64,000 bases of DNA, from NCBI RefSeq assembly GCF_035712445.1, contig NZ_DASTAT010000115.1:25583-89582 (forward strand). The letters run 5' to 3'. The notes under the pieces were generated by a model. The model searched no databases. It saw only the letters and a list, made by a program, of their open reading frames with translations, and was not told the DNA's origin. The position numbers and the translations under genes are program-made. Each line of letters opens with the position of its first letter. The stretch's first letter is position 1. Below are positions 8,439 to 46,414 of this stretch, in pieces. The stretch is from Oligoflexus sp. Lineage in GTDB: Bacteria; Bdellovibrionota_B; Oligoflexia; Oligoflexales; Oligoflexaceae.

Positions 8439-9382
8439 TTCTTGGCTCCCCACTTGGAACGAATGAAGATGGCTGCTGAGTTGCAAATCAGCAGGAAGAT
8501 CAAAAGAACGATGATGCCAGCAGCGGCCAGTTCATGGAACGCCTGCTGCGGACGCGAGGTCCAGTTGTAGATCTGAATGGGCAGCGCAGTGAAACCATCA
8601 AACAGTCCTGAGGGAACGAAAGCCACATATGTCAAAGCTCCCAGAAGAATCAAAGGAGCGGCTTCACCCATGGCCCGCGCCATCGCCAGAATCACGCCGG
8701 TCGCGATTCCCGGAACGGCCGCAGGAAGAACATGATCACGAACGGTTTGCCAGCGGGTCGCACCCAGGGCAAAGGCCGCCATGCGAATGGAATCCGGCAC
8801 GCTTTTCAAAGCCTCGCGCGAAGCGATGATAATGACCGGCATCACCAAAAGGCTCATGGTCAAGGCGCCGGCCAATACCGAGCGACCGAGGGCCATGAAG
8901 CGAACAAAGACGCCCAGACCCAGCATGCCGTAGATAATCGACGGAACGCCGGCCAGTGTTGCAATGGAAAGTTCAATGACCTGGCTCATGCGATTCTTGT
9001 TGGCCAGCTCCTGCAGATAAACCGCAGCACCGACTCCAAAGAGAACCGAGAAGAAGAGGGTGAGAGCGCCAAGCCACATGCTGCCGGCGATCGCGGATTT
9101 TATCCCGGCTTTGGACGCAAAACGCGAAGGAAAGCTGGTAAGAAAATCCCAGCTCAAACTCCCGGCTCCATCTCTCGTCACACTGGCAATCAGATAAACC
9201 AGGACGAGCAAAGCCATGATGGTGGCCACAAGGATCGTTGTTGTGAAAATACGTTCCTTCAGGCGTCGTCGTTCGGTATTAACCTTAAAGACGCTGCGAT
9301 TCTCCCGATCGGGCATGAGGCCTTCCTGTCCAGGAATAACTTTATTTTTGACGCCGCCCATAGCGCTTGGCATCTCGGTCAT
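8435..9382 (-). CDS. pstA: Phosphate ABC transporter permease
   Basis: [46 protein letters not shown]. Confidence 0.95.
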
Positions 9383-10290
9383 TCATACTTCCTTGCGTAG
9401 CGTTTGACAATGAATTGCGACAAAAGATTCATGGCCAGTGTCATCAAAAAGAGGACAAGACCGACAGCAAAGATGGACTGATATTCAAGGGAACCATGGG
9501 CCACATCGCCAAGACTCACCTGCGCGATATAGGCCGTCATGGCCTGCACGCCTTCAAAGGGGTTCAAGGTCATATTAGGTGTACCGCCGGCAGCCAGCGT
9601 TACGGCCATGGTTTCGCCAATGGCGCGGGAGAAGGCCAGAATAAAGGAGGCAAGGATACCGCTCAAGGCTGAGGGAACAACGATGCTGATGATCACTTCG
9701 GATTTACGTGCGCCCAGAGCGTAGGCTCCGTCTTTAACCGTCTTTGGGACAGCGCGAAGGGAGTCATCACAAATCGAGGCAATGGTCGGAAGGACCATGA
9801 TGGCAATCACGATCGAGGCGCTGGCCGCGTTGAAGACTTCGACGTCGTCGAAAAGGGCCTGCAGCAGCGGAGTGATCTGAGTGATCGCGAAATAACCGTA
9901 GACCACAGAGGGGATGCCGGCGAGGATTTCCAGCACCGGCTTCAGAATCTTCTGCCACCAACCCTGAGCATACTGCGAGGTGTAGATCGCAATGCCAAGG
10001 CCGATGGGCAGCGCAAAAATCAAGGCCCCGAAAGCGATCAGCATGGTGCCGCTGATCAGGGGCAAAACCCCGAAACTCCGCGGCTCGAAGAGTGGGGCCC
10101 ACTCGGTCGAGCCGAAGAATTCAAACAGGGAAATGTGACTGAAGAACTGGACCGACTCTTCCATCAGAATGAAAATGATGCCAAGAGTCGTCAGAATCGA
10201 TATCGATGCGCAGACGAGCAGCGCTTTGACGACGAGTTTTTCACGAAATTTCTGAAAGTTACTAACCTTGGCCCATGGGCGACTCGTCAC
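9379..10290 (-). CDS. pstC: Phosphate ABC transporter permease
   Basis: LEILAGIPSVVYGYF, GAYALGARKSE, SRAIGETMAV; overlaps pstA by 4 nt. Confidence 0.95.
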   Translation of the reverse strand: MTSRPWAKVSNFQKFREKLVVKALLVCASISILTTLGIIFILMEESVQFFSHISLFEFFGSTEWAPLFEPRSFGVLPLISGTMLIAFGALIFALPIGLGIAIYTSQYAQGWWQKILKPVLEILAGIPSVVYGYFAITQITPLLQALFDDVEVFNAASASIVIAIMVLPTIASICDDSLRAVPKTVKDGAYALGARKSEVIISIVVPSALSGILASFILAFSRAIGETMAVTLAAGGTPNMTLNPFEGVQAMTAYIAQVSLGDVAHGSLEYQSIFAVGLVLFLMTLAMNLLSQFIVKRYARKYE

Positions 10291-10311
10291 GCTGCTCTCC
10301 TCGCGATGGAA

Positions 10312-11259
10312 TTAGTGGGTCTGCTTTGCGGGACCGCCAGTCGCGGCTTCGAACTTCTTCAAAGTGTCGGTATAGACAGCTTCTTTCAAAGGCACATAAC
10401 CCACTTCCTTGGAAAGGGTCGCCGCGTTTTTCAGAAGGAAGCTGACGAAGGCCTTCACTTCAGGGCGCTGCTGAGCGGCCTTGTTATTCACATAGACCAC
10501 AAGAGGACGGGACAGGGGATAGCTGCCGTCTTCGATGGTCTTGGGGCTGGGCACGACAGCGGTTTTGTCTTTGGCCAGAGCCAGGACATTCATCGCCTTC
10601 TGGTTTTCTTCGTAGTAAGCAAAGCCGAAATAGGCCATGGCATACTTGTCTTTGGTTACGCCGGTGACGAGAACGTTGTCGTCTTCGCTCGCCACATAAT
10701 CATTGCGCGAGAGACGTGCGGTACCCATGACGTGCTCAGTGAAGAAATCGAAGGTCCCCGAATCGGCGCCAGGGCCGTAGAGCTTGATCTTCTCGGCTGG
10801 CCAGGCGGGATTGATATCCTTCCAGGTTTGCACCTTGCTGCCGGGCTGCCAGATTTCTTTCAATTGAGCCAGAGTCAGCTGGGTGGCCCATTTGTTGGCT
10901 GGGTTCACAACCACGGAAATACCGTCCGATGCGAGCGGCAGTTCCATGTACTCGACCTTGTTGTCCTGAGCTTTCTTGGCTTCTTCAGGCTTCATTTTGC
11001 GGGAGGCATTGGCGATATCAATTTCGCCCGTGCTGAATTTTTTAAAGCCGCCGCCTGTTCCGGAAAGACCCACAGTCACGCGAACGTTGGGATAGAGTTT
11101 TTGGAATTCTTCTGCAGCAGCCTCCGCAATGGGAAACACCGTGCTCGAACCGTCCAGCTTGACTTCGCCTTTCAGGTTCTTGTCGCCTTTATCCGCGGCA
11201 AATCCGTGACAACCCATGGCGAAAACAGCCAAACTTAACATGAGGTTGCGTGCTTTCAT
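10312..11259 (-). CDS. pstS: Phosphate ABC transporter substrate-binding protein
   Basis: Signal peptide; [37 protein letters not shown]. Confidence 0.95.
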
Positions 11260-11313
11260 GCTTTACTCCCAGATTGGTGAAAATCTTTAACGTGCAGCGA
11301 CTACATACAAGAG

Positions 11314-11333
11314 ATTTGTAAAATTAAGATAAA
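11314..11333 (-). promoter_or_regulatory. Putative Pho box upstream of pstS
   Basis: Minus strand reads TTTATCTTAAT-TTTACAAAT: TTTA half-sites 11 bp apart; the same motif recurs upstream of phoB. Confidence 0.55.
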
Positions 11334-11562
11334 GGCACAGAAAAACTGTCTTGATTGTCATCTCAGGCAATCCGGTCAGTTTAATTCCCCCCTTATCTGT
11401 AGCTGTGGCAGCATGACAGATGATGTTTAGCGGTTGGCGGTTTTATACCTACAAAGAGTGAAATCATAAAGAGAAAAATGGTGAAAGCACTGACAGCCAG
11501 ACGCTGGGGGAGGAAAGCCTACAGCTGTGAGCAGGCTTCCGTGGAATTCACGTGGAAACCCG

Positions 11563-12987
11563 CTAAATTGCTGGCAAACGGACAGTGAACGTGGAGCCGC
11601 GTCCAATGTCACTATCGACAGTTATCATGCCTTGGATCTGAATCACGAGATGTTTGACGATAGCGAGGCCCAAGCCTGTTCCGCCTTCATTCCGTGATCG
11701 CGCCGTATCGACACGATAAAACCGTTCAAAGATCCGAGGCTGGTCCTGTCGGGCTATGCCGACCCCGTTATCCCTTACAGATAGATCTATGAAGCCTTTC
11801 TCGCGACGGAGAACGATCTGAATATGCCCTTTCGAAGGCGTGTAGTTGATGGCGTTTTGCAGAAGGTTCTCAAGGATATGCGACATCGGCTTGCGACTGC
11901 CTTTGACGATCAGGTCCTGGTCGTCAATCAGCGTTTCCAGAACGATTTCCTTGCTGTTGACCTTGATCTGCTGCCGGGCGATCGCTTCCTGGACGATAGG
12001 GCGCCAGTCGACGTTTTCGAGTTCCACCGCGCCTTCATTGGCCTCGATGGTCGCAAGGCTCAATAGATCGCTCACAAGGCTGATCATGCGTTCGGCATTG
12101 TTATTGATGATGCGAAGAAAGCGCATGTTGTTGGCTTTGTCCTCCAGCGCGCCTTCCAAAAGCGTATCGACATAACCCTTGATCGAGGTCAGAGGTGTTT
12201 TGAGTTCGTGGGAAATATTGGACGAAAATTCGCGGCGGATCTGCTCCATTTTTTCCCGCCGGCTGATGTTGGCCTGGACCGCGGCGGCCAGGCGATTGAT
12301 CGCTTCGCCCAGGGTGCCGAGTTCATTATTGGGCAGGCGCCGAATCCGGGCCGCATAGTTGCCAAGACTGATGGCGCCCGCGACCTTGGTCATTTCGGAA
12401 ACGGGATCCGTGATCCGACGCACGATCACAAGAGCCACGAGGAGTGAGAGCACCATGCCCATGGAGGCGCCGATGCCGATGGCTGAAAAGATATCAGCGA
12501 CGCGATCTTCGAGGTTCCTGATGGGAACTCCCAGGCGAATGAAAAGCGTGCCCTTGGGGGTATGAACTTTTTTCGCTGTGTAAAGAGTCTGCGAAGCTTT
12601 CGTTACGCTGTAGCGCTTCGCAAGGCCCACTTCGTTCCGCGCGGCTTCCTTCACTTCCGGACGATTCCGATGAATCTCGTTGGCCTTCACTTCGCTGACT
12701 TCCGATTCCAGCAGGATTTCGCCCGCTTCATCCAAAACAGTGAGCCGGGTCTTGGTTTCCTGGGCCATGTTCACCAGAAGTTTTATGCTCTCCGGTTCAC
12801 GCCAGGTGGTGCCATCGGCAAAATAGGATTCGAAGAGCACCAGTTTCTCCTGGAGCCCTTCGATCGCGTTCTCTTCGATGAAAGACTGGGTTTTAAGAAC
12901 GAGGAGATAGCTCACCACGAACGTGGTGAAGCCGATGATCAGACAGAAGGACAAAAAGTTCTTCCAAAAAAACTTGGAGCGGATCAT
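11563..12987 (-). CDS. phoR: Phosphate regulon sensor histidine kinase
   Basis: Two TM segments, HAMP, H-box SNISHELKTPL, NLLQNAINY, DNGVGI, GGTGLGLAIVKH; adjacent to phoB and pst genes. Confidence 0.9.
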   Translation of the reverse strand: MIRSKFFWKNFLSFCLIIGFTTFVVSYLLVLKTQSFIEENAIEGLQEKLVLFESYFADGTTWREPESIKLLVNMAQETKTRLTVLDEAGEILLESEVSEVKANEIHRNRPEVKEAARNEVGLAKRYSVTKASQTLYTAKKVHTPKGTLFIRLGVPIRNLEDRVADIFSAIGIGASMGMVLSLLVALVIVRRITDPVSEMTKVAGAISLGNYAARIRRLPNNELGTLGEAINRLAAAVQANISRREKMEQIRREFSSNISHELKTPLTSIKGYVDTLLEGALEDKANNMRFLRIINNNAERMISLVSDLLSLATIEANEGAVELENVDWRPIVQEAIARQQIKVNSKEIVLETLIDDQDLIVKGSRKPMSHILENLLQNAINYTPSKGHIQIVLRREKGFIDLSVRDNGVGIARQDQPRIFERFYRVDTARSRNEGGTGLGLAIVKHLVIQIQGMITVDSDIGRGSTFTVRLPAI

Positions 12988-13676
12988 TGCAATTCCCGGA
13001 ATTTATATCCAAGGCCACGCACGGTCTGAATCAGGTCACGGGATTCGCCGAGCTTTTTCCGGATCGCGCGTACGTGCACATCGATGTTGCGATCGATGAG
13101 AACGCCTTCGCCACCTGTCACGGCATCCAGCAGACGATCGCGCGACAGGACGATTCCCGGACGGGCGACGAGCGCTTCGAAAAGACGGAATTCCGCGAGG
13201 GTCATGGGCACATGATGACCTGCGACCTTGACCTGAAAGCGGGCCTTGTCCACCTCGACTTCGCCCTGACGCACGACTTCGCCGGGACTGCGCTCGGCGT
13301 CCGGAGATTTCTGGGTCCGAAGCCGGGTATAGATGCGGGCGATCAGTTCCTTCACGCCGAAGGGCTTGATCATGTAATCATCGGCACCGACGCCAAGGCC
13401 GAAGACGATATCCGTTTCCTCGCCTTTGGCCGTCAGCATGATGATGGGCACGCTGCGCTTTTCAGGGATTTCACGAATTTTTTTGCAAACCTCGATGCCG
13501 TTCAGATGAGGCAGCATGAGATCAAGAACGATAATGTCGGTTTTCTTGCTAAGAGCCTTTTCGAGTCCATCCTGACCATCGGAGCAGGTGGTGACATCAA
13601 AGCCTTCGCGGGACAGATTGTAATTCAGAAGTTCTCGAATATCCGGATCGTCCTCGATGACAAGAATGTTCTTCAT
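12984..13676 (-). CDS. phoB: OmpR/PhoB family response regulator
   Basis: Receiver (IEDD, LDLMLP, MLTAKG, KPF) plus winged helix (DRNIDVHVRAIRKKL, IQTVRGLGY). Confidence 0.9.
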   Translation of the reverse strand: MKNILVIEDDPDIRELLNYNLSREGFDVTTCSDGQDGLEKALSKKTDIIVLDLMLPHLNGIEVCKKIREIPEKRSVPIIMLTAKGEETDIVFGLGVGADDYMIKPFGVKELIARIYTRLRTQKSPDAERSPGEVVRQGEVEVDKARFQVKVAGHHVPMTLAEFRLFEALVARPGIVLSRDRLLDAVTGGEGVLIDRNIDVHVRAIRKKLGESRDLIQTVRGLGYKFRELQ

Positions 13677-16074: not shown

Positions 16075-16152
16075 AGCCTTGACAGACTCTGCCTTTTGAC
16101 GCCTTTGTGGCATACAATAGAACTGTCAAGGTTTACATGGCAGGAGTTCCCG

Positions 16153-17154
16153 GTGGCAACCAATAAGTACAGTGGCGCGCAAAAAGCAGCGATTCTTCTT
16201 CTCTCTTTCGGTGAAGAGATTTCCGCCGAAATCTTCAAGAGCATGACCGAGTTTGAGATCAAACGCATCGGTAGCGCCATGAGTCGCCTCGGGCGCCTGG
16301 AGCAGGAAATCATCGACGAAGTGATGATGGAATTCTACGGAATCCTGCAGCAGAACAAAAAGTTCTTCTATGGCGGCAACGACTTCACGATGAAGGTCAT
16401 CGGCAGCGCCTTCAAAGGCGGCGAGGCGGATGAACTCATTGAGCAGTTGGCGCTCGGTTCATCGGCGAACCTGGATGCCCTGGAGCTGATTGATCCGAGG
16501 ACCCTGACCAACTTCATTCGGAACGAGCATCCGCAGACGATCGCTCTGATCCTGGCCCACCTTGATCCGCAGAAGTGCGGCGAGGTCCTGAAGCTTTTGC
16601 CGGAAGCCTTGCACACGGAAATCATCCTGCGCATCTCGAACCTGGATGCCGTGGCTCCCGAGATCATCGACGAGATTGATGATGTTCTGCGCAACGAAAT
16701 TCAGGCCATGGGTTCGATTTCGAGCCAGAAGATCGGTGGCGTGGAGCCCATCGCCGAGATGCTCAACCTTATTGATAAGGCCACGGAAGAGCAGATCCTC
16801 GACAACCTGGAAGAACGTGATCCGGATCTTGCCGAGCAGATTCGTCAGCTCATGTTCGTCTTTGATGACCTTGCCAAGATTGATGATCGCGGCATCCAGG
16901 AAATCATCAAGAATGTGAAGCCCGAGCAGTGGATGACGGCCCTGAAAACAGCGTCCGAAGCCGTGTCCGAGCTGGTATTCCGCAATATGTCCGAGCGTGC
17001 CGCGAAGATGCTGAAAGAGGATATGGAGGCGATGGCCGCTGTGAAGCTTTCCGACGTGGAATCGGTGCAGTATGAAATCGTTCAGGTGGCGCGGAAGCTG
17101 GAAGAGGAAGGCAAGATTATCATTGCTCAGGGTGGTGAAGCGGCTTACGTTTAA
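16153..17154 (+). CDS. fliG: Flagellar motor switch protein FliG
   Basis: GAQKAAILLLS, EHPQTIALILAHL, MFVF motif, FRNMSERAAKMLKEDM; GTG start 6 nt after AGGAG. Confidence 0.95.
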   Translation: MATNKYSGAQKAAILLLSFGEEISAEIFKSMTEFEIKRIGSAMSRLGRLEQEIIDEVMMEFYGILQQNKKFFYGGNDFTMKVIGSAFKGGEADELIEQLALGSSANLDALELIDPRTLTNFIRNEHPQTIALILAHLDPQKCGEVLKLLPEALHTEIILRISNLDAVAPEIIDEIDDVLRNEIQAMGSISSQKIGGVEPIAEMLNLIDKATEEQILDNLEERDPDLAEQIRQLMFVFDDLAKIDDRGIQEIIKNVKPEQWMTALKTASEAVSELVFRNMSERAAKMLKEDMEAMAAVKLSDVESVQYEIVQVARKLEEEGKIIIAQGGEAAYV

Positions 17155-17277
17155 GCCGGGATTGATGCTCTTTAACCCTCTGGAATCCTTGGGACAAATT
17201 CGAAATATCTTAAGGAATTCCAAGCCTTGGCCGAAGCTGAATCGTAGCGCAAAAGCGCCCCAAGTACGAGGAAAGCC

Positions 17278-18615
17278 ATGGCCAATCAGAACCGTCAGCT
17301 GCTGAAGAAACGCGCGCAAAGGCGGGAACTTTATCTGGGTGAGAATGTTCGTGCGTTTTTGATCCTGGGCGGTTCGCGAACGGTGGGTGGCGAGGTGATC
17401 AGCCTTTCGGAATCAGGCCTCGCTTTTGTGTGCGAACCTCAGGTCGATGCCGAGCTGCCGATCGGCCGCGTCGTGCAGCTGAAACTCTATTATGATGCCC
17501 GCCGTTATTTTACGACCTCCGTGGAAATTCGGAATAAGAGCGTTTTCAGCTCACAGGGCTCGCAGTATCTGCGGGTCGGTGTGTCGGCTGCGGCCGGTGA
17601 ATCGGTGAGCGATGCCGAGGATCTTGTGAAGAAGGTGGAAGCATCCATCAACCTTGGCATGGATACCTGCGGTTTCCTTGAAATTGAAAATCCCATGTTC
17701 TTTGATGAGCATGATTACTTCAGCATCCGTGCGGTGCATCCTGAATTCATCCTCGTCGCCCCTTTGGAAAATCGACACTTTCTTTTGCCTGGTCAACCCG
17801 TGGAAGCGCGATTCAACATCCCCGGTTCCACCTCGTTCGTGGAGGACCTGATCGTCGATCGCTCCGTGCCCGATCGCGACTGGTGGGCGTCGGATGTTCT
17901 GATGCTGAACTTCGCGCAGAAGTCGGAAAAGACTCTGGCAAAGATCGCGAAGATGGCCATGATTCAAAAACCGCAGCTGCATGTGCAGGAGATCATGAAG
18001 GCCGGGTTTCCGATTCCCTATCTGGATTTTTTGCTGCGGGTCCAGTTTGCTGCGCGTGACAAGGATGATCCCCAGGTTGCGATGCTGAAGAGCAGCTTCT
18101 TCGCGCCGGGGCCCTACCTTGCGGAGCAGGATCTGAAGAGCGCGCGGGTGCTGTCGTTTTATCGGCAGAATACCTTGATTGCGACGATGAAGCTCAATTT
18201 CGTCCCCGATGTGCGGCAGAGCTCGGCCTTTTATGGGTCAGGCGTCTATAATCATCAGTTCTATCGCAAGTCGGTGGTCGAGATCCTTGATTTCAAACAT
18301 CATCCCGAATATCCGCTGCCGTCCATTCTGGTGCCGATCATTCAGCAATGCCTGCGAGCCTCGATTCAGGCGGATTTCAGTTTCCTTGTGTTCGAATGTA
18401 CACAGCAGACCGAGAATATTTTTCATCGCATGGGATTTACCACGCTTAAAACGCCCAGTCCTGGGCCTGCTGACCGTTGCTTTGTCAGCCTGGGCATCAA
18501 GCAGGGCCTGTCCGGCCTGACCAGCGGAGTGCATCATGACACCTGGGAGCGGGTTTATAAAAGACTGCACGCCTATCTGAATCGCAAGCACCCGCTCGCG
18601 AGGAACATCGCTTGA
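17278..18615 (+). CDS. PilZ-domain protein with C-terminal GNAT/FeeM-like domain
   Basis: RAQRR (RxxxR) plus SLSESG (D/NxSxxG-like) c-di-GMP motif; C-terminal half has an acyltransferase-like pattern ending in IFHRMGF. Confidence 0.6.
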   Translation: MANQNRQLLKKRAQRRELYLGENVRAFLILGGSRTVGGEVISLSESGLAFVCEPQVDAELPIGRVVQLKLYYDARRYFTTSVEIRNKSVFSSQGSQYLRVGVSAAAGESVSDAEDLVKKVEASINLGMDTCGFLEIENPMFFDEHDYFSIRAVHPEFILVAPLENRHFLLPGQPVEARFNIPGSTSFVEDLIVDRSVPDRDWWASDVLMLNFAQKSEKTLAKIAKMAMIQKPQLHVQEIMKAGFPIPYLDFLLRVQFAARDKDDPQVAMLKSSFFAPGPYLAEQDLKSARVLSFYRQNTLIATMKLNFVPDVRQSSAFYGSGVYNHQFYRKSVVEILDFKHHPEYPLPSILVPIIQQCLRASIQADFSFLVFECTQQTENIFHRMGFTTLKTPSPGPADRCFVSLGIKQGLSGLTSGVHHDTWERVYKRLHAYLNRKHPLARNIA

Positions 18616-18719
18616 GTCCACCCGTATAAAGTCTCTTTACGCCGCTCAAACTCCTGAGTAACTTCTCATTCACGGATGGTCATGGATCGGCCACCGTTTG
18701 GAAGAGGAGTTTCTTTTTT

Positions 18720-21700
18720 ATGCGCCATGCGCTGCCTTTTTTCGTCCTTGGGTGGATCGTTTCCGGAATGGCAACAGCCGCAAGCCTTGTGAGCTTCACG
18801 CCACAGGGCTCGATCAAAAAAGCGTCCCAGGTTCAAGCCCGTTTTGACACTGATATGGTGGACTTTGGCAACGGTCGGGCACCCTCCCCTTTCAAGGTCG
18901 ACTGCCCGGCTCGCGGTGAAGGACGTTGGCTGGACGCGCGGACTTTTGTGCATGACTTCGTCAGTGAGCTGCCGGGTGGCATTCGCTGCACGTTTACCCT
19001 CACCCAGCTTAAAAATCTAAAAGGCGAGGCGCTCAGCGGTCAAACCAGCTTTGCTTTTGATACCGGCGGGCCAGCTTTGATCCGCAGTATTCCATCGGCC
19101 GAGAGCAGCTATGTCAATGAAGAAGACCCGATGCTGCTCGTTTTTGATTCGCCGATCCAAGCGCAGAGTTTGAACGGAAAGATTTACTATCAGGTGCCGC
19201 AAAGAGCGGATGCCATTGGTTTTGAAATGGTTCCCGAGGCGGAAAAATATATCGCTGAGCAGTGGCCTTACCTGGGCGAGGAACTGAAACTTGATCCCAA
19301 GTTTTATATCCTTATCAAACCCAAGGAACGTTTGCCGGGTGATACCGATATAACCCTGGTCCTGGACAAGGGCATCGCGAGCCCGAGCGGGGTTGCGACA
19401 CAGTATGCGCATACGCTGCGTTTCAAGACAAGGCCGCCTTTCCGTGCCAGCTTCTACTGCGAAAAGGAAAAGTCCGGTGGTCCCTGCGCACCCTATGGTG
19501 ATTTTTCCATTTCCTTCAATGATCGGGTTGCGGAAAAGGATCAGGCGCGCATTCGTGTGCTGGATGCGAAAAATCAGGAAGTCGATATCAAGCGGGAAGG
19601 ATCCTATTACACCATTCCCGGGCCCCACTCTGCGAATAGCAGCTATCGCATAGAAATTCCAGCCGATCTGAAAGACGAGCGTGGGCGGCCATTGGCCAAC
19701 GGCAAGGAATTTCCTTTGACCGTGAAGGTCGGAGACTATGGACCGCTGCTGAAGTTTCCAGGTGATTTCGGTGTGCTTGAGGCTGCGTATCCGATCTGGC
19801 CTTTGAATATGCGTAAAGTCGAAGGGCAGCTGAACGGACGTCTTTATAAAGCGGCCTCACGACCGGACACGGCCTTGCGTTGGTATAAGACCATACAAAG
19901 CGCCGATCGCCGTGATCAGCGCGATGTTTCGATCTTCGCTGGCATGCCGGCCTCTGATTTCAAAAACGTTCCTTTGAAAAAGCCGAATGGCCCGGATGCT
20001 TTCGAAGTGATCGGCGTGCCGTTAAGCGGCCCTGGTTTTTATGTGATGGAAGTCGGAAGCGAGCGTTTAGGGGCGGCGCTTTTGGATAAGAAAAAACCCA
20101 TGTTCGCGCGGGCTGCGGTGCTCGTGACCAATCTCGCTGTTCATGTGAAAAAAGGCCGGCAGGGGGCCTTGGTGTGGGTCACAAACTTTGACAAGGGCGA
20201 GCCGGTCCCAGGAGCGGATGTCGCCATTGCGGATTGTCAAGGCAAGGTCCTCGTCAGCGGAAAAACGGATGCATCCGGACTTTACCTGCATCCATCCGCT
20301 TTGCCCCCCAGCCGCGGCAGCTGCTATGGCTCCTATGATTATGAAGGCGAATCAAGTGATTACTTTGTCAGCGCAAGCAAGGACAATGATTTCAGCTTTA
20401 CCCTGACGCATTGGAACAATGGAATTGAGAGCTGGCGATTTCAGTTGCCCTGGGACAGCGCGTCCTCGGATCTGCAGCTTCATTCCATTTTGGATCGCAC
20501 GCTGTTACGCACCGGGGAAACAGTTTCCATGCTGCATGTCGCGCGGCGTCGCGTGAAAGACGGGCTGGCCTTTCCACGCGCGGGTGATCTGAAAAATACC
20601 GTGCGCCTTCAGCATATCGGCAGTGACCGGAATTACATCGTGCCCCTTGTTTGGAATGATGGGCAGGGCCGGGCCGAGAACTCCTGGAAAATTCCTGCGG
20701 ATGCGCCTTTGGGCTGGTATTCCATCATGATCGGGGATCAGGAGAGCGGACGTTTCCGGGTCGATGAATTCCGCCTTGCCACCATGCGCGGACGACTGCA
20801 GGCCAAGGATAGCAGCCTGATCGCACCCAAGGAAATTATCTATGACTTTGATGTGAGTTATTTGAGTGGGGGACCGGCCTCGAATCTGCCGGTGCGTCTG
20901 CGTCGTTCCTTTCAGGGAGCCTATCAGCCGCATTTTTCCGGCTATGATGAATTTGATTTTCAGGCCGGACCTGTGGATCTGACTCCCGATAAACCGGATG
21001 CGCAGCCTGATAGCAAGGTGGAAACCAAGGATGTGGCGCTGGATAAGGCTGGAACAGGAACGCTCGCTTGGAAAGCTCCTGCGATTGATCGGCCAACGCG
21101 CGTGCTGACGGAAATGGAATTTCCCGATGCGAACGGCGAGGCGCGCACCGTGGCCACGGAACATAGGATTTGGCCGTCCGCTGTCGTGATCGGTATGAAA
21201 GGTCCCTGGTGGCTGCAGAAAGGGGAGACTCTGAAACTCGCGGGGGTGACGCTCGATCCCAAAGGGCAGGTGGTCCCACAGCAGGAACTCACGGTTCGCG
21301 CTTTCAAGGAGGAGATTCTGAGTCACAGACGGCGCGGAGTCGGTGGGACTTATGTTTATGAACATAAGACCGAGATCAAAGAGATCGGCGTTTTCTGTGA
21401 AACGAAAAGTGATGACAAGGGGCTTTGGACTTGTGAAAAGCCCCTGACAAGCAGCGGCAACATCCTCCTTCAGGCCGAGGCCAAGGATCGCGAGGGCCGC
21501 GTCGCGTATGCCAACCGTTCGATCTGGGTCGCGGGTGAACGCCTTTGGTATATGAGCGAGGATCATGATCGCATGGACCTCATTCCCGAGAAAAGGCATT
21601 ACGAAGCCGGGGAAAAAGCCCGGATTCAGGTGAAAATGCCTTTCGCGCAGGCGACTGTCCTCGTCGCCACCGAACGGGACGGGGCGATTTTGGAGAGCAG

Positions 21701-24162
21701 GGTGATTAAGCTCGATTCCAAGCAACCTTTCCTCGATATTCCCATCCCGCGTTCCTATGCACCGAACGTTTTCGTATCAGCCTGGGCTGTGCGTGGGCGG
21801 GTGAAGGGGACGGAACCATTTTTGAAGATAGATCTGGGCAAGCCCGCGCATAAGCTCGGTATTACCGAACTTAAAGTCGGCTGGCGTCAGCATACTTTGG
21901 ATGTGAAAGTGGCGACCGATAAACCTGTCTATAAAATTCGGGAAAAAGCCCAGGCCCGCATTGAAGTCAAAGCACCGAACGGTCAGCCTTTGCCGGCAGG
22001 CTCCATCGTTACGGTGGCCGTTGTCGATGAAGCCCTGCTTGAGCTGATGGGAAATCAAAGCTGGGATCTTCTTTCCGCAATGATGTTGGAACGCGCCTAT
22101 GGAATCGAGCATGCGACGTGTGCGATGCAGGTCATCGGGAAAAGGCACTTTGGGCTCAAGGCTCTGCCGCACGGCGGTGGCGGGGGCAGCAATCCCACCC
22201 GCGAAGTGCTGGATGCTTTGATACTGTGGAAGGGAGAGTTAGCGTTGCAGGATGGAGTCGCGACGCTCGACATTCCGCTCAAAGACAATCTTTCCAGCTT
22301 CCGTATTGTGGCCGTGGCTCAGGCCGGCACGGATATGTTTGGAACAGGCAGCACTGCAATCCAAACGCAGCAGGATATCAGTTTGATTGCGGGTCTTCCG
22401 CCTTTTGTGCGGGAAGGTGATAAATGGCAGGCGCTGGTGACCGTTAGGAATCGCAGTCAGACTCCGCAGCAGGTGACTTTGAAAGCCCGTATGGGCGAGA
22501 CGGCATTGCCGGACAAAACGGTCAATCTAAAAGCGGATGAATCGCAGCTTGCCGTATGGGATATGGAAGTGCCGCGGGGCGTGAGTGAATTGAAATATAC
22601 CTTCGATGCCGTGGCAGCGCAGGGTGGAGCGGACAGCCTCCGCTTTACACAGCAGGTGAAGCCCGCGATTCCACTGCGGGTGCTTCAGGCTTCGCTTATG
22701 GTTTTGAATGAACCCCAGACCCTGCCTGTGGCTTTGCCGGAAAAAGCCGATCCTTCTCGTGGGGGATTGGATCTGAGTTTTTCAGCCGGACCCGGCCTTG
22801 ATATGCTGCAGGGCACTCGTATTTTCTTTCAGGAGTATCCTTACAGCTGTCTGGAACAGCGTGTGTCCAGTGTCGTCGGCCTCGATAATCGCAAGGGCTG
22901 GGAGCAGATCGTGAAAACTCTGGATTCCTATATGGATCAGGATGGACTTTTGAAATATTTCCCCCTGATGCGGCATGGATCCATGACCCTGACGGCCTAT
23001 GTTTTGAGCCTGAGCCATGAAGCTGGATTTGCCCTGCCTAAGGCCAAGGAAGAGGCCTTGCGCTATGCCCTGAAGCGGGCCGTGGATGGCGAGATCACCG
23101 ATCATGAATACCGCATGCCGGGCGATCAGCTGGCCTATCGGAAGATCATGGCGCTCGAAGCTTTGAGCCGCTATGATGCCGAGCCCGTAAGCCTTGTGAA
23201 GAACCTCGATGTCAAACCGGAACTCCTGCCGCATGCGACCCTGATTGATCTGGTGCAGGCTCTTTCGCGGGCGAGCGGTGATGCCGTGATGAACGAACTG
23301 AAAGATAAATCCATACAGCAGCTCCAGGCTCGCCTCCGTTTGAGTGGAACCCAGTATGGATTGGCAGGCGAGGAATACAATCAGATCAGCAGCCTTCTGA
23401 GCAGTCCCGATTCCAACGCGGCCCGACTGCTGCTGCTCGGACTCGATCAGAAGGTTTGGAGCAGCGAACATGCGCGTATGCTGGAAGGTCTTTTGAGACG
23501 GCAAAAGCAGGGCGCCTGGTCCACCACGACAGCCAATGCCTGGGGTACTTTGGCTATGCGGAACTATCTGAAGCAGCATCCTCCGGCTGGTTCGGATACC
23601 AAGGCAACCGTGAATTGGCAGGATAAAACGCAAACGGTCGGCTTGAAAGAAAAAGCCCCCTTGCATCTTGCATGGCCTCAAAAGCGTGAGACTTTGACTT
23701 TGAGCCGCGAAGGCCAAGGCGAAGTGTGGACGACCGTAATTTCCCGCGCCGCAGTTCCTTTGAGCCAGCCCTTCCAGGCCGGTTATCAACTGGAAAAGAC
23801 CATGCAGCCCGTGGAACAAAAGGTCAAAGGCAAGTGGTCGCGCGGGGATATGATCAAGGTTTCCTTTACGATGGAAGCCGGCAGTGATCAAACCTGGGTG
23901 GTGCTGGCTGATCCGATTCCAGCGGGTGCGCGTATTCTGAACGCCAGCCTTAGGGATGATTCCGGACAGAAGGCTGGGAATTTCCTGGCGCCGAGTTATG
24001 TGGAGCGTCGTCACGAAGGGTATTTTGCGTATTTTGAATTCATGCCCGTCGGTCGACATACCCTGTCCTATGTGATGCAGGTGAATAACCCTGGACTGTT
24101 TCAGTTGACCACGACGCGCTTGGAAGCCATGTATGCCCCGGATCAGTATGCGGAGTTGCCGA

Positions 24163-24185
<23 letters not shown>
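18720..24185 (+). CDS. Bacterial alpha-2-macroglobulin family protein
   Basis: 1821 aa; signal peptide; MG domains (LDRTLLRTGETV, FRVDEFR), YPYSCLEQ thioester motif, C-terminal LADPIPAG...LEAMYAP; followed by pbpC. Confidence 0.93.
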
Positions 24186-27368
<3,183 letters not shown>

Positions 27369-29588: not shown

Positions 29589-30518
29589 TTAGAGAGACTG
29601 CATCAGACTGAGAGCAACTTGAGGCTGCTGGTTAGCTTGAGCAAGAATCGAGGCACCACCCTGCTGAAGAATCTTGTTCGACGTGTAGGTCGCAGTCTCA
29701 GCAGCAAAGTCTGTATCCTGAATCCGGCTGTTCGCGGCGGACAAGTTCTCAACCGACACGGCAAGGTTGTCGATCGTGCTGCCCAGGCGGTTCTGGATTG
29801 AGCCGAGATAGGAGCGATAGTCACTCACTTTCACGATGGCGTCGTCCAGTTTCGAGATACTCATCTGAGCATCCTGCTTGGTCAGCGTGTTGGTACCCTG
29901 ATCAGCGCGACCGATATCCAGTGAACCATCGCCTTCTGTGAAAGCGTTGATGTTCTGAAGGTCGATCTTGATGATGTTGACCTGGTTGCGGTTATCAATA
30001 CCGTCGACTTCGCTGGAAGCGTGGTAGTCTTTACCAACCTGGATTTCCAGGGGGAAAGTACCTTCGGCGTTGGCGATCTCACCGGGGATATCGGCCTGAC
30101 CGGTGATCAAACGTGTGCCGTTGAATTCCGTAGCGTTGGCGATACGGTCGATTTCATCTTTCAGAGCCACGAATTCTTTGTTGATGAATGCGCGCTCGGT
30201 TTGACCAACCGTGTCACTCGCCGCTTGAACAGCAAGTTCGCGCAGACGGGTGAGCATGTTCGTGGTTTCTTCCAAGCTGCCTTCTGCGGTCTGAACGAGA
30301 GAGACACCGTCCAGTGCGTTGCGGCGAGCCTGATTCATCGAACGGATGTCGGCTGTCAAGTTGGAGGAGATGGCCAGGCCCGCTGCATCATCAGCTGCCT
30401 TGTTGATCCTTTTCCCCGAAGCCAGCTTCGAAGCGGAATCCGTCAACTTGTTGGTTGAGGTTTCCAGACGACGCTGGGCGTTGATCGAAGCGATATTGGT
30501 CCTAATCCGTAAACCCAT
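29589..30518 (-). CDS. fliC: Flagellin
   Basis: MGLRIRTNIASINAQR, LASGKRINKAADDAAGLAIS, RSYLGSIQNRL, SRIQDTDFA; ATG 30518 downstream of GGAGG. Confidence 0.97.
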   Translation of the reverse strand: MGLRIRTNIASINAQRRLETSTNKLTDSASKLASGKRINKAADDAAGLAISSNLTADIRSMNQARRNALDGVSLVQTAEGSLEETTNMLTRLRELAVQAASDTVGQTERAFINKEFVALKDEIDRIANATEFNGTRLITGQADIPGEIANAEGTFPLEIQVGKDYHASSEVDGIDNRNQVNIIKIDLQNINAFTEGDGSLDIGRADQGTNTLTKQDAQMSISKLDDAIVKVSDYRSYLGSIQNRLGSTIDNLAVSVENLSAANSRIQDTDFAAETATYTSNKILQQGGASILAQANQQPQVALSLMQSL

Positions 30519-30574
30519 ATTCTGACCTCCTGTCATGGATAAGGAATCACATCGTGTGAATTCCTGTACCCATC

Positions 30575-30601
30575 CTTTCGACAGGCAACCTGAACAGTTT
30601 A
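30575..30601 (-). promoter_or_regulatory. Putative sigma28 (FliA) promoter of flagellin
   Basis: Minus strand TAAA-N15-GTCGAAAG versus consensus TAAA-N15-GCCGATAA. Confidence 0.55.
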
Positions 30602-35565: not shown

Positions 35566-37200
35566 ATGTCAGCTTCGATGCAGACATCAGCCGCGCATCT
35601 GCTGGTTTTGGTGCCTGTCTATAATCACGCGGCCACGCTGGGCAAGGTTTTGCGTGAACTCAGCACGGTGAATCTGCCGATCCTTGTTGTCGACGACGGC
35701 AGCACGGATGGAATCGAGGCTGTGCTCATCGACTTCCCGCAGCACACCATTTTGAAACATCAGACGAACCGCGGCAAAGGCGAGGCCCTGCGTACCGGTA
35801 TGCAATGGGCCATGAGCCAGGGCTTTACGGCTGTGCTGACCTTCGATGCGGACGGCCAGCACAGGGTCGCTGATATTCCCAAACTCCTGTCTGCGTGGCG
35901 CGAGGACCCTGAGGCGATCACGATCGGAGTCAGGGATTTCAAGGCCGCAGCCAGTGGATCTGTGCCCTTCGGATCAAAAATTGGGCGTTTCCTCTCGAAT
36001 CTCTTTGTATGGGTCGAGACTGGTCAGGCCATGCAGGATACGCAGTCGGGGCTTCGCATCTATGGGCTGCATCGGCGGCTGCTGCGGAGTCTGAAGGCTC
36101 AGCGCTATCATTTCGAAGTCGAAATCCTGGTGCGTGCGGTGTGGATGGGGCTCAACGTTCACACTGTTCCGGTCGGTGTGATCTATCCGCGTCCTGAAGA
36201 GCGCATTTCACATTTTCGCGTGTGGGTCGACACCCTGCGCATGGCGGGCCTGCATTGCCAATTTTTAGGGCTGCGGCTTTTCATGCTGCTGGGACTTTAC
36301 CAGCAAAGGCCCTTGAAAAGTCCCGAAGAGATCGGTGGGGTCGGGGTCATAGCCTGGCTCGTCCAGAGGCTCGGGATTCGCTTCTGTTATACACTTATGA
36401 TCCTGCCGGTGATGTTCATCTTCCTCAAGGAAAGCTCGCGGCGAGCGGCGATTATGGAATTTCATGCTCAGCTTAGGCCCGCTGCGAGTCGATGGAATCG
36501 GCTGAAAGCGAGTCTCAGCAACTTCTGGTATTTCGGGATGAGTCTTTTGGATCGTTTGAATCCTGCGGGCAATTCGAGCATCCTGGCCCCGGCGAGCCTG
36601 AGCGAGGAAACCTGGAAGCATTTGCTCGGACAGGGCAGCATCTTTGTGGGCGCACACTATGGCGATTGGTTTTTGGTCGCTTTGCATAAACGCGACGTCT
36701 TCGATCGGCCCATGGGGCTTGTCATGGATCCGCGCGGAACGCCGGAGTTCATGGACAAGGTCATGGAGCTTTATGGCGATCGGATTCGCATCATAGATCC
36801 TTTCCAGGAGCCCTTGGCCTTTGCCCTGGAGGTGAAACAAATTCTGGACGAGCGCGGGAACGTCTGTTTTTTGGGTGACAGGCTTCAGGGTAAAGCTCGG
36901 GAATACACGGTGAGTCTGCCTTTCCTGGGCAAGGAAGCCGCGTTTCTGCAAGCGCCTTTTGATTTGGCTCTGCGCCTTCGGGTTCCCGTTCTTTATTTTG
37001 GCTGCACCAAACAGGGCATCACGCCTGCAGCCCCTTATCAGATTTTTCTTCATTCCATCTACGACGGACGGGAGCGTTTGCCGGCCAGGGCCCTGGTCGA
37101 ACGCTACGTCAGGCATCTGGAATCACAGGTGCAGACGGCCCCCCAGCATTGGTTTAACTTCATTCCCTTCTGGCGTCAGTTGGAGACGGAGAGAGCATGA
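35566..37200 (+). CDS. GT2 glycosyltransferase fused to an LpxL-like acyltransferase (aryl-polyene-cluster type)
   Basis: VPVYNH, VVDDGSTD, TFDADGQH, DTQSGLRIY, HFEVEIL; C-terminal half GAHYGDW, LGDR, PQHWFNFIPFW. Confidence 0.85.
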   Translation: MSASMQTSAAHLLVLVPVYNHAATLGKVLRELSTVNLPILVVDDGSTDGIEAVLIDFPQHTILKHQTNRGKGEALRTGMQWAMSQGFTAVLTFDADGQHRVADIPKLLSAWREDPEAITIGVRDFKAAASGSVPFGSKIGRFLSNLFVWVETGQAMQDTQSGLRIYGLHRRLLRSLKAQRYHFEVEILVRAVWMGLNVHTVPVGVIYPRPEERISHFRVWVDTLRMAGLHCQFLGLRLFMLLGLYQQRPLKSPEEIGGVGVIAWLVQRLGIRFCYTLMILPVMFIFLKESSRRAAIMEFHAQLRPAASRWNRLKASLSNFWYFGMSLLDRLNPAGNSSILAPASLSEETWKHLLGQGSIFVGAHYGDWFLVALHKRDVFDRPMGLVMDPRGTPEFMDKVMELYGDRIRIIDPFQEPLAFALEVKQILDERGNVCFLGDRLQGKAREYTVSLPFLGKEAAFLQAPFDLALRLRVPVLYFGCTKQGITPAAPYQIFLHSIYDGRERLPARALVERYVRHLESQVQTAPQHWFNFIPFWRQLETERA

Positions 37201-38417
37201 GCTTGAATTGGTCGCAGCTCTTCGCACGCGCGGAACGAATGCGTGACGAGGTCCTGCACGAAGCATGGGCCAAGGAACTGCCCCTTCTTTTGCAGCCGTC
37301 CACCCGCCCCGGAAGCCTGCTGCTGCTTGCCCTTGGTTTTATGTGGCCCTTTGGGGTGATCCTGGATGAGAAAAATCTTCTGAGAGGCGGCACAGCGTTT
37401 CGTTTGGACGAAAGGCTGATTCCTGCTGATCTGATGCCGCCTTCCGAGCGGATTGAAGCGGATCCGGTGGCGCCCGCGTTCTGGTCCCGTCTTGAAGAAT
37501 GGCAGCTGACCCTTTGCACGTCGGGCTCCACGGGCGAACCCAAACGCATTCAAAAGACTGGTGCCGGACTTCTGGCCGAGGTGCGGGATCTTGCGGGGAT
37601 TTATGGGTGGCGTGAAGGGGATGCCATACTCTCTTTGGTGAGTCCGCTGCATATTTACGGGCTCCTTCATAGTTTTCTTCTGCCCTGGTTTTGCCGGGCG
37701 TCTGTTGAGTTCGTGAATTTTCAAAAAGGCCCGATTGATATTCCGGACCTTGCATCGACCCGCTACGCCGCTGTCATTGCAGTTCCAGCGACCTGGAGCT
37801 TTGTGAAGGATCTTCTGAACAGTCGGTCGCTCGGAACTCTGGTGATGTCGGGCGCGCCTTTTGGAGCAAAGCGCCGCGGCGAGCTGCAGGAGTTTTCACG
37901 CAAGCCTGAACGGGCCGTGGAAATCCTTGGCAGCACGGAAACCGGCGGGATTGGAATGAGATCCCTGCTTGAGCCCGAGGATTGTTTTCGCTGTCTCCCG
38001 TCGGTGCGCATCATGGAAGAATCGGGCGAACAATGGGTGCTATCCCCTTATGTGCAGCCTGCGACGCGCTGGGTGCTGGCGGATCGATTGGAAGTGAAGT
38101 CTGATGGGCGCTTTCTGCATCAGGGTCGCAGTGATCGCATTTTCAAGTATGCAGGACAGCGCTACGCACTTGCCGAAGTCGAGACGGCATTGAGCCGAAT
38201 CCATGCGCATGCGGAGACGCTGGCCTTCTTTCATCGTGATGATGCCGTTGCACAGGGCGGCTGGCTGGAGGCCTGGATTGAATCCGACCCCTTGCCGGTG
38301 GATGCCGAGGTCCGGCGACGCTATCAGGCGGAAACGCCCGCTCCTTTCCCGCACCGCGTGCATTTCATGCCTTCCTTTCCAAGGGATGGGCAGGGGAAGG
38401 TCCAAATCCTGACTTAA
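37197..38417 (+). CDS. AMP-binding acyl-CoA/ACP ligase (ApeH-like)
   Basis: CTSGSTGEPK P-loop, VSPLHIYGLL, ILGSTETGGIG, GRSDRIFK; overlaps the previous gene (ATGA). Confidence 0.82.
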   Translation: MSLNWSQLFARAERMRDEVLHEAWAKELPLLLQPSTRPGSLLLLALGFMWPFGVILDEKNLLRGGTAFRLDERLIPADLMPPSERIEADPVAPAFWSRLEEWQLTLCTSGSTGEPKRIQKTGAGLLAEVRDLAGIYGWREGDAILSLVSPLHIYGLLHSFLLPWFCRASVEFVNFQKGPIDIPDLASTRYAAVIAVPATWSFVKDLLNSRSLGTLVMSGAPFGAKRRGELQEFSRKPERAVEILGSTETGGIGMRSLLEPEDCFRCLPSVRIMEESGEQWVLSPYVQPATRWVLADRLEVKSDGRFLHQGRSDRIFKYAGQRYALAEVETALSRIHAHAETLAFFHRDDAVAQGGWLEAWIESDPLPVDAEVRRRYQAETPAPFPHRVHFMPSFPRDGQGKVQILT

Positions 38418-38472
38418 GCTTCCTTTTCCATGATAAAATGTTTCCATTCTTCAAAGATTGGAATGGAAGCTT

Positions 38473-41184: not shown

Positions 41185-41194
41185 GGTTTTTTGT

Positions 41195-43261
41195 TTAGAG
41201 CGGTGCTGGGGTCAGGTGGATCCGAGGACCGTCCGGAGTTGTTGCTACGAAGACCAACTGTTGACCGAAGGCAGCGAGACTGAATGCATCGCTGGAGCCA
41301 TTGACGTTAATGTCTTTGACTATAATTGTTCCTGACTCTGTACCATCTGACTTCCAAGGTTCGAGATTGTGAATTCCATCGTGAGCTCTGAAGTACAATA
41401 AGTTGCCCACAGCTGTGAGCGAGGTCATCGAGCTGCCGATTGTTCCTGTTCGAATGTCTTTCACAAGGACAGTCCCGGACTCAGTGCCATCAGATTTCCA
41501 GAGTTCGGTGCCGCTCGTGCCATTATCAGCTGTAAAGAATAATGTTCCATTGACAGTCGTGAGGTTTCCCGGAGTACTTCCGTTTAGGCCGGTGCGGACA
41601 TCTTTTACCATCATTGTTCCTGCTTCCGTACCGTCCGTTTTCCAGAGTTCACGGCCTGAAGTCCCGTTGTCTGCCCGGAAATACAGGTATCCTCCGAGAA
41701 TTGCAAAGGGCGCCGCGCCAGCTGCTGAAAGACCATCCGAGTTTCCAACGCGTATGTCTTTAACCATGACGGTGCCTGCGTCTGTACCATCAGACTTCCA
41801 GAGCTCCCGTCCGTAATCGCTCAGTTCTGCGCTGAAGAACAGTGTGCTTCCCATGGCCATGAAATCTGAGGGTACAGTGTCGGTCATGTTATCCAAGTCT
41901 TTGACCTTGACTGTTCCGCTTTCTGTGCCGTCTGATTTCCAAAGATCGAAATCACCGTTGCCATCGTCAGCTGCAAAGTAAAGGATTCCGTTGACGTTTG
42001 TTAGCGATGCTGGCGAACTGGATGATGAACCTGAATTTATATCCTTGACCAAAGTCGTTCCAATTTCTGTCCCATCCGATTTCCACAATTCAGCCCCGGT
42101 CGTGCTTTCAATTCCTGTAAAGTAGAGAGTTCCATTGACGTTGATCAAAAGGCTGGGGACAACCGATGCGCTCGGTTTAACTTTGACAGTGCCTGCTGTC
42201 GTACCATCCGTTTTCCAAAGGCGAACTCCCGATCCATCATCTGCAGTAAAATAGAGGACCCCTCCCACGCTCTCAAAATTCGAGGGAGAGCTATTCGACG
42301 CCCCTGTGTAAATGTCTTTGACTAGCGTCGTACCCGCGAGCGTTCCATCCGTTGCCCAAAGTTCGGCTCCATGGGTGCTTGAATTTCCTTGGAAGTAAAC
42401 CTTGCCAGCAAACTCGGCAAAACCACTTTGGATGTTGAGTCCTGCTGACGAGATGACATTCGGCACCAGCCGATATTCCTTATAAGCATTCACATTGCCA
42501 TAACCACTCGAAGGAACACAGGCCGATTCACTCAAACGACTGTAGCGATCCGATGTGGTGGCATCGGAGGCATAGGAATAATAAGTCGCAACCGTATGAT
42601 AAGAAGCATTGCTATCATCACAATCCGTAGTCCCGAGACTCGCGGCTAGATACCCAGCCGGCAGCGAAGCTCCGGTGCAGAGCGACCCGGAACTGGCAAT
42701 CGAATGCCCATCATTGTCCGCATCCCGATGCGAGTAGGCGAGCGTCTGCCATTTCGTGGCGTCGGTGCTATCACAATCGCTATAGACAACCTGAGCCAAC
42801 GTTAAAGTATAAGCAGTATTGGAAGGACAAACCTGAGAGGACTGCGAACCATCCGCATAGCCATCTCCATCCGCATCCGTGAGTTTATAGCGAGTCACCC
42901 GAAGCGCATCGTTTTCACCAGGACAAAGATCCTGATCATCGGTGACGCCGTCCATATCTGTATCAGCAGTAGCACTGGTGTTTCCCGAACCTGATCCTGT
43001 GCTCCCACTGCCTCCCGTATTCGTATTGCCTGAGCTATCGTTTGTGGTCGAATCAGTTGATGGCGAAGGGCTGGTTTCGCTGGCGACATCCTTATCATTC
43101 TTGCCCGCAGGGCTGCCGGGAAGGGGACCCGAAGACTTGTCCGTGCCTCCTGTTTCCTCACCCGTGGCCGGGGCCTCGTCGCCTTGAGCGCTGCCCTTTC
43201 CGCCTGGTTTGGTGCAGGCGGTGAAGGTGATGAATAGAGACATGGCTATGAGCGCTTTCAT
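41195..43261 (-). CDS. ELWxxDGT-repeat lipoprotein
   Basis: Lipobox ITFTAC from ATG 43261; Ser/Thr/Gly linker; DxDxDG and DCDD metal-binding-like motifs; eight [EDR][LP]W[KA][ST]DGT repeats. Confidence 0.88.
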   Translation of the reverse strand: MKALIAMSLFITFTACTKPGGKGSAQGDEAPATGEETGGTDKSSGPLPGSPAGKNDKDVASETSPSPSTDSTTNDSSGNTNTGGSGSTGSGSGNTSATADTDMDGVTDDQDLCPGENDALRVTRYKLTDADGDGYADGSQSSQVCPSNTAYTLTLAQVVYSDCDSTDATKWQTLAYSHRDADNDGHSIASSGSLCTGASLPAGYLAASLGTTDCDDSNASYHTVATYYSYASDATTSDRYSRLSESACVPSSGYGNVNAYKEYRLVPNVISSAGLNIQSGFAEFAGKVYFQGNSSTHGAELWATDGTLAGTTLVKDIYTGASNSSPSNFESVGGVLYFTADDGSGVRLWKTDGTTAGTVKVKPSASVVPSLLINVNGTLYFTGIESTTGAELWKSDGTEIGTTLVKDINSGSSSSSPASLTNVNGILYFAADDGNGDFDLWKSDGTESGTVKVKDLDNMTDTVPSDFMAMGSTLFFSAELSDYGRELWKSDGTDAGTVMVKDIRVGNSDGLSAAGAAPFAILGGYLYFRADNGTSGRELWKTDGTEAGTMMVKDVRTGLNGSTPGNLTTVNGTLFFTADNGTSGTELWKSDGTESGTVLVKDIRTGTIGSSMTSLTAVGNLLYFRAHDGIHNLEPWKSDGTESGTIIVKDINVNGSSDAFSLAAFGQQLVFVATTPDGPRIHLTPAPL

Positions 43262-43556
43262 GGGCGACTCCAAAATTATTTGGAAATCCACTTTCAACGC
43301 TATTCGGTGAGGCCCGGTTAAATTATTAAGCAGGTTGAGTTTTAATTTTTATTTCCCAATGCAGTGTTCAATGCTGAAAACGGAAGGCGGGTTGTTTGAA
43401 TCCAAGTTGATGGATTCATAAGGCAATTTAGGGGTCCAAAAAAACCAAACATGGCCTCGTCACACAGCGTCAGGAACTTGAACTTTTGGCTTCTGCCCGG
43501 CGAGTTAAACGCGCCGGACGGGAGCTTGATGATCAGTTTGAGCTAAAAATGGGACT

Positions 43557-44267: not shown

Positions 44268-44432
44268 GTGTGTGTCTCCGCAAGCCAAGGGTTGGTGTCT
44301 GGCTCTTATCCTTTCGCAAATCCTATGCCGCCACTTTTCAGGTCATTTTGGCCGAAAAGGCGCAACTTTCAGTCCTCAGCAGGACGTATCACGGCAGGAA
44401 TTTGTTGCAGCTGTGAACGAGAGTTTACACGC

Positions 44433-46364: not shown

Positions 46365-46414
46365 GCCCTCGTAGTCGGCATTTTCGGCTGAAAGATAAGG
46401 ATCTTGCGAAGATT

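Follow-up and report, generated by a model that had tools for sequence, protein, structure and literature searches.

Second-messenger-gated GNAT acyltransferases are already known, namely PixB, Nas343/354, the cyclic AMP (cAMP)-activated NasP and the cAMP-gated Rv0998. PixB (MXAN_2604) of Myxococcus xanthus, with the domain order PilZ-PilZ-GNAT, binds cyclic di-GMP (c-di-GMP) in vitro although its second motif is non-canonical, and reversal control requires its acyltransferase domain, which also suffices for it (PMC8316039). [quoted passage not shown] Substrate and gating mechanism are understood for none of the PilZ-linked GNAT acyltransferases. Here, we describe a gene in Oligoflexus sp. (assembly GCF_035712445.1, contig NZ_DASTAT010000115.1) that lies directly downstream of fliG in a stretch of 64,000 nucleotides (nt), hereafter the window, and that combines a PilZ domain, a PilZ-like barrel and a FeeM-like acyltransferase domain in one protein. 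Combining sequence comparison and structural modelling, we favour, with modest confidence, the view that it encodes a stand-alone acyltransferase of the FeeM type that is gated by c-di-GMP and probably FliA-dependent.

The gene (17278..18615, + strand) encodes 445 amino acids, and its ATG is located 123 nt past the fliG stop codon (17152-17154) on the same strand and 5 nt downstream of a Shine-Dalgarno sequence, GAGGA (17268..17272, +), which is kept in the related genomes G073 and G065. The sequence-only reading of this DNA had described an RAQRR...SLSESG c-di-GMP signature, a probable second degenerate barrel, a C-terminal GNAT/FeeM-like region and a start 123 nt after fliG, and this description is correct in every particular, with RAQRR at residues 12-16, SLSESG at residues 42-47 and the distance confirmed from the coordinates. 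The N-terminal PilZ domain (residues 12-105; 17311..17592, +) was recognized by Pfam PilZ (PF07238; residues 12-102, 24.0 bits, over the gathering cut-off of 22.5), by its motifs, by a barrel in the structural model and by Foldseek matches to PilZ proteins. The second beta-barrel (residues 131-214; 17668..17919, +) was delimited by AlphaFold2 strands at 133-212, by Foldseek and by conserved columns; it contains neither an RxxxR nor a DxSxxG motif, its own conserved motifs being NPxFF and PG. The FeeM-type GNAT acyltransferase domain (residues 251-437; 18028..18588, +) was assigned by Pfam FeeM (PF21926; residues 285-394, 24.6 bits), by Foldseek, by a profile alignment to 3fb3 and by column counts. 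No named NCBIfam family was found for the 445-residue protein.

The AlphaFold2 model, built on 43 full-length relatives, had a mean predicted local distance difference test score of 85.9 and a predicted template modelling score of 0.80, and it arranges the chain as barrel 1 (15-104), a helix, barrel 2 (133-212), a helical linker and an alpha/beta domain (253-437). In Foldseek searches against the PDB, the barrels best matched PlzA (7mie, E 2.3e-8), followed by MotI, MrkH and YcgR, and these two-barrel receptors were aligned across 220-250 columns. The C-terminal domain matched the chains of FeeM (2g0b; E 5.9e-7 to 1.8e-5, TM 0.58-0.62 by target), which outranked other stand-alone GNAT domains, and further matches included the cAMP-gated lysine acetyltransferase Rv0998 (4avb, E 1.4e-5) and the acyl-homoserine lactone synthase LasI. 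A subfamily profile including this protein aligned the GNAT beta4-alpha3-beta5 core to 3fb3 (E 3.6e-5).

The nearest homologs are from Oligoflexus, for example a "PilZ domain-containing protein" of O. tunisiensis with 82% identity, and a second homolog clade stands at ~50% identity. An exhaustive HMMER search yielded 55 representatives, mostly 440-500 residues long and aligned end to end at 20-25% identity, with matches in 38 of the 131 genomes of the class. PilZ was matched in 35, FeeM in 18 (at E<0.01) and Acetyltransf_5 in 12 of the 43 full-length relatives, with best E values of 2.1e-12 for PilZ and 2.7e-11 for FeeM, which puts the domain calls far beyond chance. A profile search of a set of 5.8 billion proteins returned the Oligoflexus clade alone. 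Annotated proteins with the three-part layout are most common in Bdellovibrionota, Spirochaetota and Pseudomonadota, and fusions of a cyclic nucleotide-binding domain with FeeM are listed too. The three-part layout is an existing family that has been annotated automatically and left unstudied.

The residues expected to carry the function are well conserved in the family columns (n = 43). On the one hand, the first c-di-GMP motif comprises R11 (34/43), R15 (42/43) and R16 (32/43), and the second comprises D42 (33/43; S in 8/43), S44 (34/43) and G47 (42/43). In the Oligoflexus protein, an RxxxR motif stands ahead of the barrel as R12-A-Q-R15-R16 and the second motif reads S42-L-S44-E-S-G47; R12, R15, R16, S44 and G47 are invariant across 16 orthologs. 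On the other hand, the GNAT domain keeps R290, F308 and E335 in 41 relatives each and G386 in all 43. E335 is located on the strand 333-341 ahead of the long helix 347-364, that is, in GNAT beta4-alpha3, and judging from topology and profile position it probably sits where FeeM and Nas354 have their catalytic Glu (Glu95 and Glu103, respectively). The acetyl-coenzyme A (CoA) pyrophosphate loop Q/RxxGxG/A is missing across the family, with Y-P-L-P-S-I at that place here. The ratio of nonsynonymous to synonymous substitution rates (dN/dS) is ~0.09 against G073 and G065; against G073, with dS near saturation, the whole gene gives 0.09 and the three domains, in order, give 0.05, 0.04 and 0.06. By this measure, all three domains are under purifying selection. 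The sequence-only reading had added that the C-terminal domain may be catalytically degenerate, which we do not favour given near-invariant E335, R290 and F308 and a GNAT dN/dS of ~0.06; the conserved residues and low dN/dS also led us to reject a decaying remnant.

A sigma-28 (FliA)-type promoter-like element precedes the gene (17211..17237, +), consisting of TAAG (17211-17214), a 15-nt spacer and GCCGAAGC (17230-17237), 67 nt ahead of the ATG. The sigma-28/sigma-D consensus is TAAA-N15-GCCGATAA. In G065, where the gene occupies a different site (described below), DNA similarity to our genome (G000) spans 17208-18622, thus covering the gene and 70 nt in front of it, starting 3 bases before the -35 box and stopping 7 nt past the stop codon. 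TCTTAAG and GGCCGAAGCTG are common to G000, G073 and G065, and the intervening 15 nt differ almost entirely. Related boxes were also found 45-105 nt before the start codon of the ~50% identical orthologs, with TAAA-N15-GCCGAT in G072/L005 and L009, TAAA-N15-ACCGAT in G061 and TAAG-N15-ACCGAT in G066; thus four of these lineages carry TAA[A/G]-N15-[G/A]CCGAT, and the fifth, L007, has only the near-match CAAG-N14-TCCGAT. Boxes of the form TAA[A/G]-N15-[G/A/T]CCGA[T/A] are therefore kept upstream of orthologs in at least four different genomic contexts. Such a motif was present in only 1 of 24 distant family members, which marks the promoter as particular to the Oligoflexus orthologs. We regard FliA-dependent transcription as likely.

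Matches to the strict form TAAA-N14-16-GCCGAT also occur elsewhere in the genome. Four of ten annotated intergenic matches stand ahead of genes for CheX (C126:119278-119880), a response regulator (RR)-GGDEF cyclase (C22:125630-126703), an OmpA/MotB-like protein (C34:4545-5357) and a 7TMR-DISM kinase, and an eleventh precedes a GYF-PilZ gene (C121:18996-19577). The sites ahead of the RR-GGDEF, GYF-PilZ, CheX and OmpA/MotB-like genes suggest a c-di-GMP module within the late flagellar regulon itself. Large 7TMR-DISM-HPt-HATPase kinases, which resemble CheA fused to a receptor, recur in these genomes; one of them (C61:12242-15088 in G000) lies downstream of a strict sigma-28-like site.

From the above analysis, we favour the following mechanism. 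The gene would form a single-gene unit, transcribed from its own sigma-28-type promoter alongside the late flagellar and chemotaxis genes. Motifs and fold suggest that the PilZ domain could bind c-di-GMP via R12/R15/R16 and S42-x-S44-x-x-G47, and in the model the motif-less second barrel and the two helical linkers pack this sensor against the C-terminal domain. The output would be a FeeM-type GNAT acyltransferase, with E335 probably serving fatty-acyl transfer to an amine. The missing CoA pyrophosphate loop points to acyl-acyl carrier protein (acyl-ACP) as the probable donor. An amino acid is the most likely acceptor, so that the product would be an N-acyl amino acid; acylation of a motility or chemotaxis protein on a lysine is less likely. 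In flagellated cells, c-di-GMP would turn the acyltransferase activity on or off.

A number of observations pull in the other direction. For the output domain, the FeeM score of this protein stays under the gathering cut-off of 27, and PDB sequence searches with the GNAT domain of one relative, with the subfamily profile and with the whole-family profile returned generic GNATs and never FeeM; furthermore, the equivalence of E335 and FeeM Glu95 would follow from topology and profile position only. For the sensor, the family register is R11xxxR15, in which this protein has Lys11, and RxxxR is obtained via R12 only in a shifted register; the second motif has Ser in place of Asp/Asn at its first position throughout the Oligoflexus clade. 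For the promoter, the -10 box reads GCCGAAGC and not GCCGATAA. A relaxed pattern matched twice in the window, ahead of this gene and of a flagellin gene, against 0.81 matches expected, a count not above chance for a pattern that was written after both sites had been seen. Genome-wide, the strict form occurred 55 times against ~34 expected by our own composition estimate, which is only a ~1.6-fold excess, and no flagellin promoter in G000 fits its GCCGAT form. Lastly, no terminator-like site was found between fliG and the PilZ gene, and read-through from fliG is possible in G000.

The main alternative to an N-acyl amino acid product is a protein substrate, as proposed for PixB, in which case the enzyme would be a protein N-acyl- or acetyltransferase whose lysine modification of a chemotaxis or motor protein is gated by c-di-GMP. 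PixB shares the three-part layout and uses its acyltransferase domain to act on Frz-dependent reversals (PMC8316039), the Foldseek match to Rv0998 (4avb, E 1.4e-5) is to a lysine acetyltransferase under cAMP control, and the sigma-28-type promoter groups the gene with motility genes. However, the acetyl-CoA pyrophosphate loop is missing family-wide, FeeM and Acetyltransf_5, and not protein acetyltransferases, match best among GNATs, and the likeness to PixB comes from the published layout, not from sequence comparison. We consider this alternative not very probable.

The neighbourhood of the gene was compared across genomes, and it does not preserve the fliG adjacency. The block phoR-RR-lpxK-cinA / fliG is kept in G073, G065, G072 and G056, and the PilZ gene stands 3' of fliG in G000 and its close relative G073 only. 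In G065, the next gene past fliG, at a distance of 328 nt, is an alpha-2-macroglobulin gene, with no PilZ gene in between, and the ortholog (80% identical) resides on another contig amid phoX, a ricin-type lectin gene and a 7TMR-DISM-HPt kinase gene; this kinase (L039:10741-13629), of the 7TMR-DISM-HPt-HATPase type, is convergent with the relocated gene. Ortholog and fliG are on separate contigs in G065, G072, G061 and G066, and no fliG was found in the flanks (5-6 kb per side or to the contig end) of eight metagenomic homologs. The ~50% orthologs have M28 peptidase and PapA_C acyltransferase genes as neighbours, and five distant family members (20-25% identity) lie in five unrelated contexts with no flagellar gene. 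A conserved partnership with the PapA_C and M28 genes was also considered and rejected, as their homologues in G000 are on other contigs. In the orthologs and relatives compared here, no neighbour is conserved. Judged by the comparison with the 80%-identical ortholog in G065, the gene was relocated recently to its site 123 nt downstream of fliG, and this site would have no functional meaning. As a caution on method, adjacency to fliG in a single genome mimicked a functional pairing, and the conserved signal was the promoter travelling with the gene. A link to motility is still plausible, and it would be regulatory, through the conserved sigma-28-type promoter, and not syntenic.

These results bear directly on the possibility of a YcgR-like brake, in which the c-di-GMP-loaded PilZ tandem would bind FliG or MotA and the GNAT domain would be an inactive scaffold. 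Besides the fliG adjacency in G000 and G073, such a brake would agree with a two-barrel module like those of YcgR, MotI and PlzA by fold, with the missing CoA-binding loop and sub-threshold FeeM score, with the lack of any PilZN/YcgR-type protein in the genome by Pfam and with the sigma-28-type promoter, as E. coli ycgR is a class III (late flagellar) gene. Nevertheless, G065 lacks the adjacency, as do all the ~50% orthologs and every distant member examined; the barrel order is reversed with respect to YcgR, the motif-bearing barrel coming first; the protein itself has no PilZN (YcgR_N) match in Pfam; and E335, R290 and F308 are near-invariant in a GNAT domain whose constraint equals that of the PilZ domain. 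The genome codes for at least 22 further PilZ proteins, several of them of 244-282 residues, and these could be brakes. A YcgR-type brake is thus unlikely.

The fliG gene itself (16096..17154, +; TIGR00207, 334 bits; FliG_N, FliG_M and FliG_C) encodes a protein whose conserved part starts near 16153. Its ortholog is 86-99% identical at the amino acid level in 22 of 22 family genomes, with a dN/dS of 0.003 against G073, and because of this family-wide conservation it would not be a private partner of the next gene; the window FliG is most likely the principal rotor protein. The sequence-only reading had proposed a c-di-GMP-gated motor effector or acylating enzyme paired with its own FliG. Its sensor-acyltransferase part agrees with the predicted domains and the model, whereas the pairing does not stand, and the synteny survey revealed no conserved linkage to fliG. 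The gene had also been called an orphan fliG, which holds as to its position and misleads otherwise, scattered flagellar genes being the rule in this genome (7.27 Mb, 145 contigs, 97% complete). A complete flagellar gene set is present, in which fliF, fliM, flhA and fliA are on other contigs, with fliA adjoining flhA and fliM, and eight flagellin-type genes are spread over six contigs. Three FliG_C matches were found in the genome, none of them adjoining fliF. One of the other two is a paralog 45% identical to the window FliG (C46:5432-6433; TIGR00207, 245 bits), located directly after a gene for a ClpX-like AAA+ ATPase, and the other is a FliG-type gene on C108 (L047:4151-6817) for an 888-residue protein with FliG_M and FliG_C at its C-terminus. 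A second, faster-evolving FliG occurs in every family genome searched.

The contexts of the ~50% orthologs could instead point to an enzyme of lipid or secondary metabolism that is controlled by c-di-GMP and has no tie to motility, the promoter being fortuitous or belonging to another alternative sigma factor. A PapA_C-type acyltransferase gene is convergent downstream in three of three contexts of these orthologs, one of which has an aryl-polyene-like cluster 2 kb away; an aryl-polyene cluster also lies 17 kb downstream in the window, and many strict-consensus matches precede genes for unannotated, apparently secreted proteins. Yet the PapA_C and M28 homologues on other contigs in G000 leave no conserved neighbour, and the boxes and their 15-nt spacing fit the sigma-28 consensus and are kept across ~50% protein divergence. 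We judge this explanation improbable.

At the ortholog locus L009, the PilZ-acyltransferase and PapA_C genes have the aryl-polyene-like set (9341-13323) ~2 kb downstream, with genes for a halogenase-like flavoprotein, an ACP, ketosynthases and an ApeP-like protein, and the presence of the cluster in the window (35566-51071) is possibly a coincidence. Downstream of the PilZ gene, the window contains the alpha-2-macroglobulin gene (18720..24185, +; 1821 residues), an unrelated neighbour that is found directly 3' of fliG in G065, and pbpC (24133-26295), which encodes a class A penicillin-binding protein of 720 residues and overlaps the alpha-2-macroglobulin gene by 53 nt. A solitary flagellin gene (29589..30536, -) is set among the housekeeping genes for arginase, tgt, an esterase and a GATase, and its upstream region (30577-30601, minus strand) carries TAAA-N15-GTCGAA.

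Returning to the favoured acyltransferase reading, it is possible, though doubtful, that a lipoamino-acid synthase gated by c-di-GMP belongs to the late flagellar (FliA) regulon of Oligoflexus. If so, the c-di-GMP level would decide whether flagellated cells produce an N-acyl amino acid surfactant or signal or cease to do so, which would be a direct enzymatic link from the motile state to a secreted lipid within a FliA-driven c-di-GMP module; this module would also seem to include the RR-GGDEF cyclase and the GYF-PilZ protein. In practical terms, the Oligoflexus family offers a compact and confidently modelled protein, mutable candidate residues (R12/R15/R16 and E335) and a setting that is likely to be the late flagellar regulon.

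By analogy of architecture, PixB and Nas343/354 are the closest studied analogues of the Oligoflexus protein, and each differs from it in part. PixB, likened here by layout only, shares the order of PilZ, barrel and C-terminal GNAT domain, but it is longer and has RxxxR in both of its PilZ domains (R121 and R331), whereas the Oligoflexus protein has the motifs in barrel 1 only; moreover, its host has no flagella, and what PixB affects there are gliding and type IV pilus reversals. Nas343 and Nas354 likewise fuse a FeeM-type NAS domain to PilZ, but in the reverse order, with the NAS domain N-terminal, a single PilZ domain C-terminal and no second barrel. FeeM (2g0b) and the LuxI-type, acyl-ACP-dependent GNAT branch resemble our case in lacking the CoA P-loop and, as predicted from the model, in a Glu conserved on the central strand, although FeeM shares only 12% identity with Oligoflexus residues ~250-437 and is without sensor domains. 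YcgR, MotI (DgrA) and PlzA consist of two consecutive PilZ-type barrels, as does the sensor half of the Oligoflexus protein; however, they place the motif-less barrel first, have RxxxR in the inter-barrel linker and have no enzyme domain, whereas the Oligoflexus protein places the motif-bearing barrel first and ends in a putative acyltransferase.

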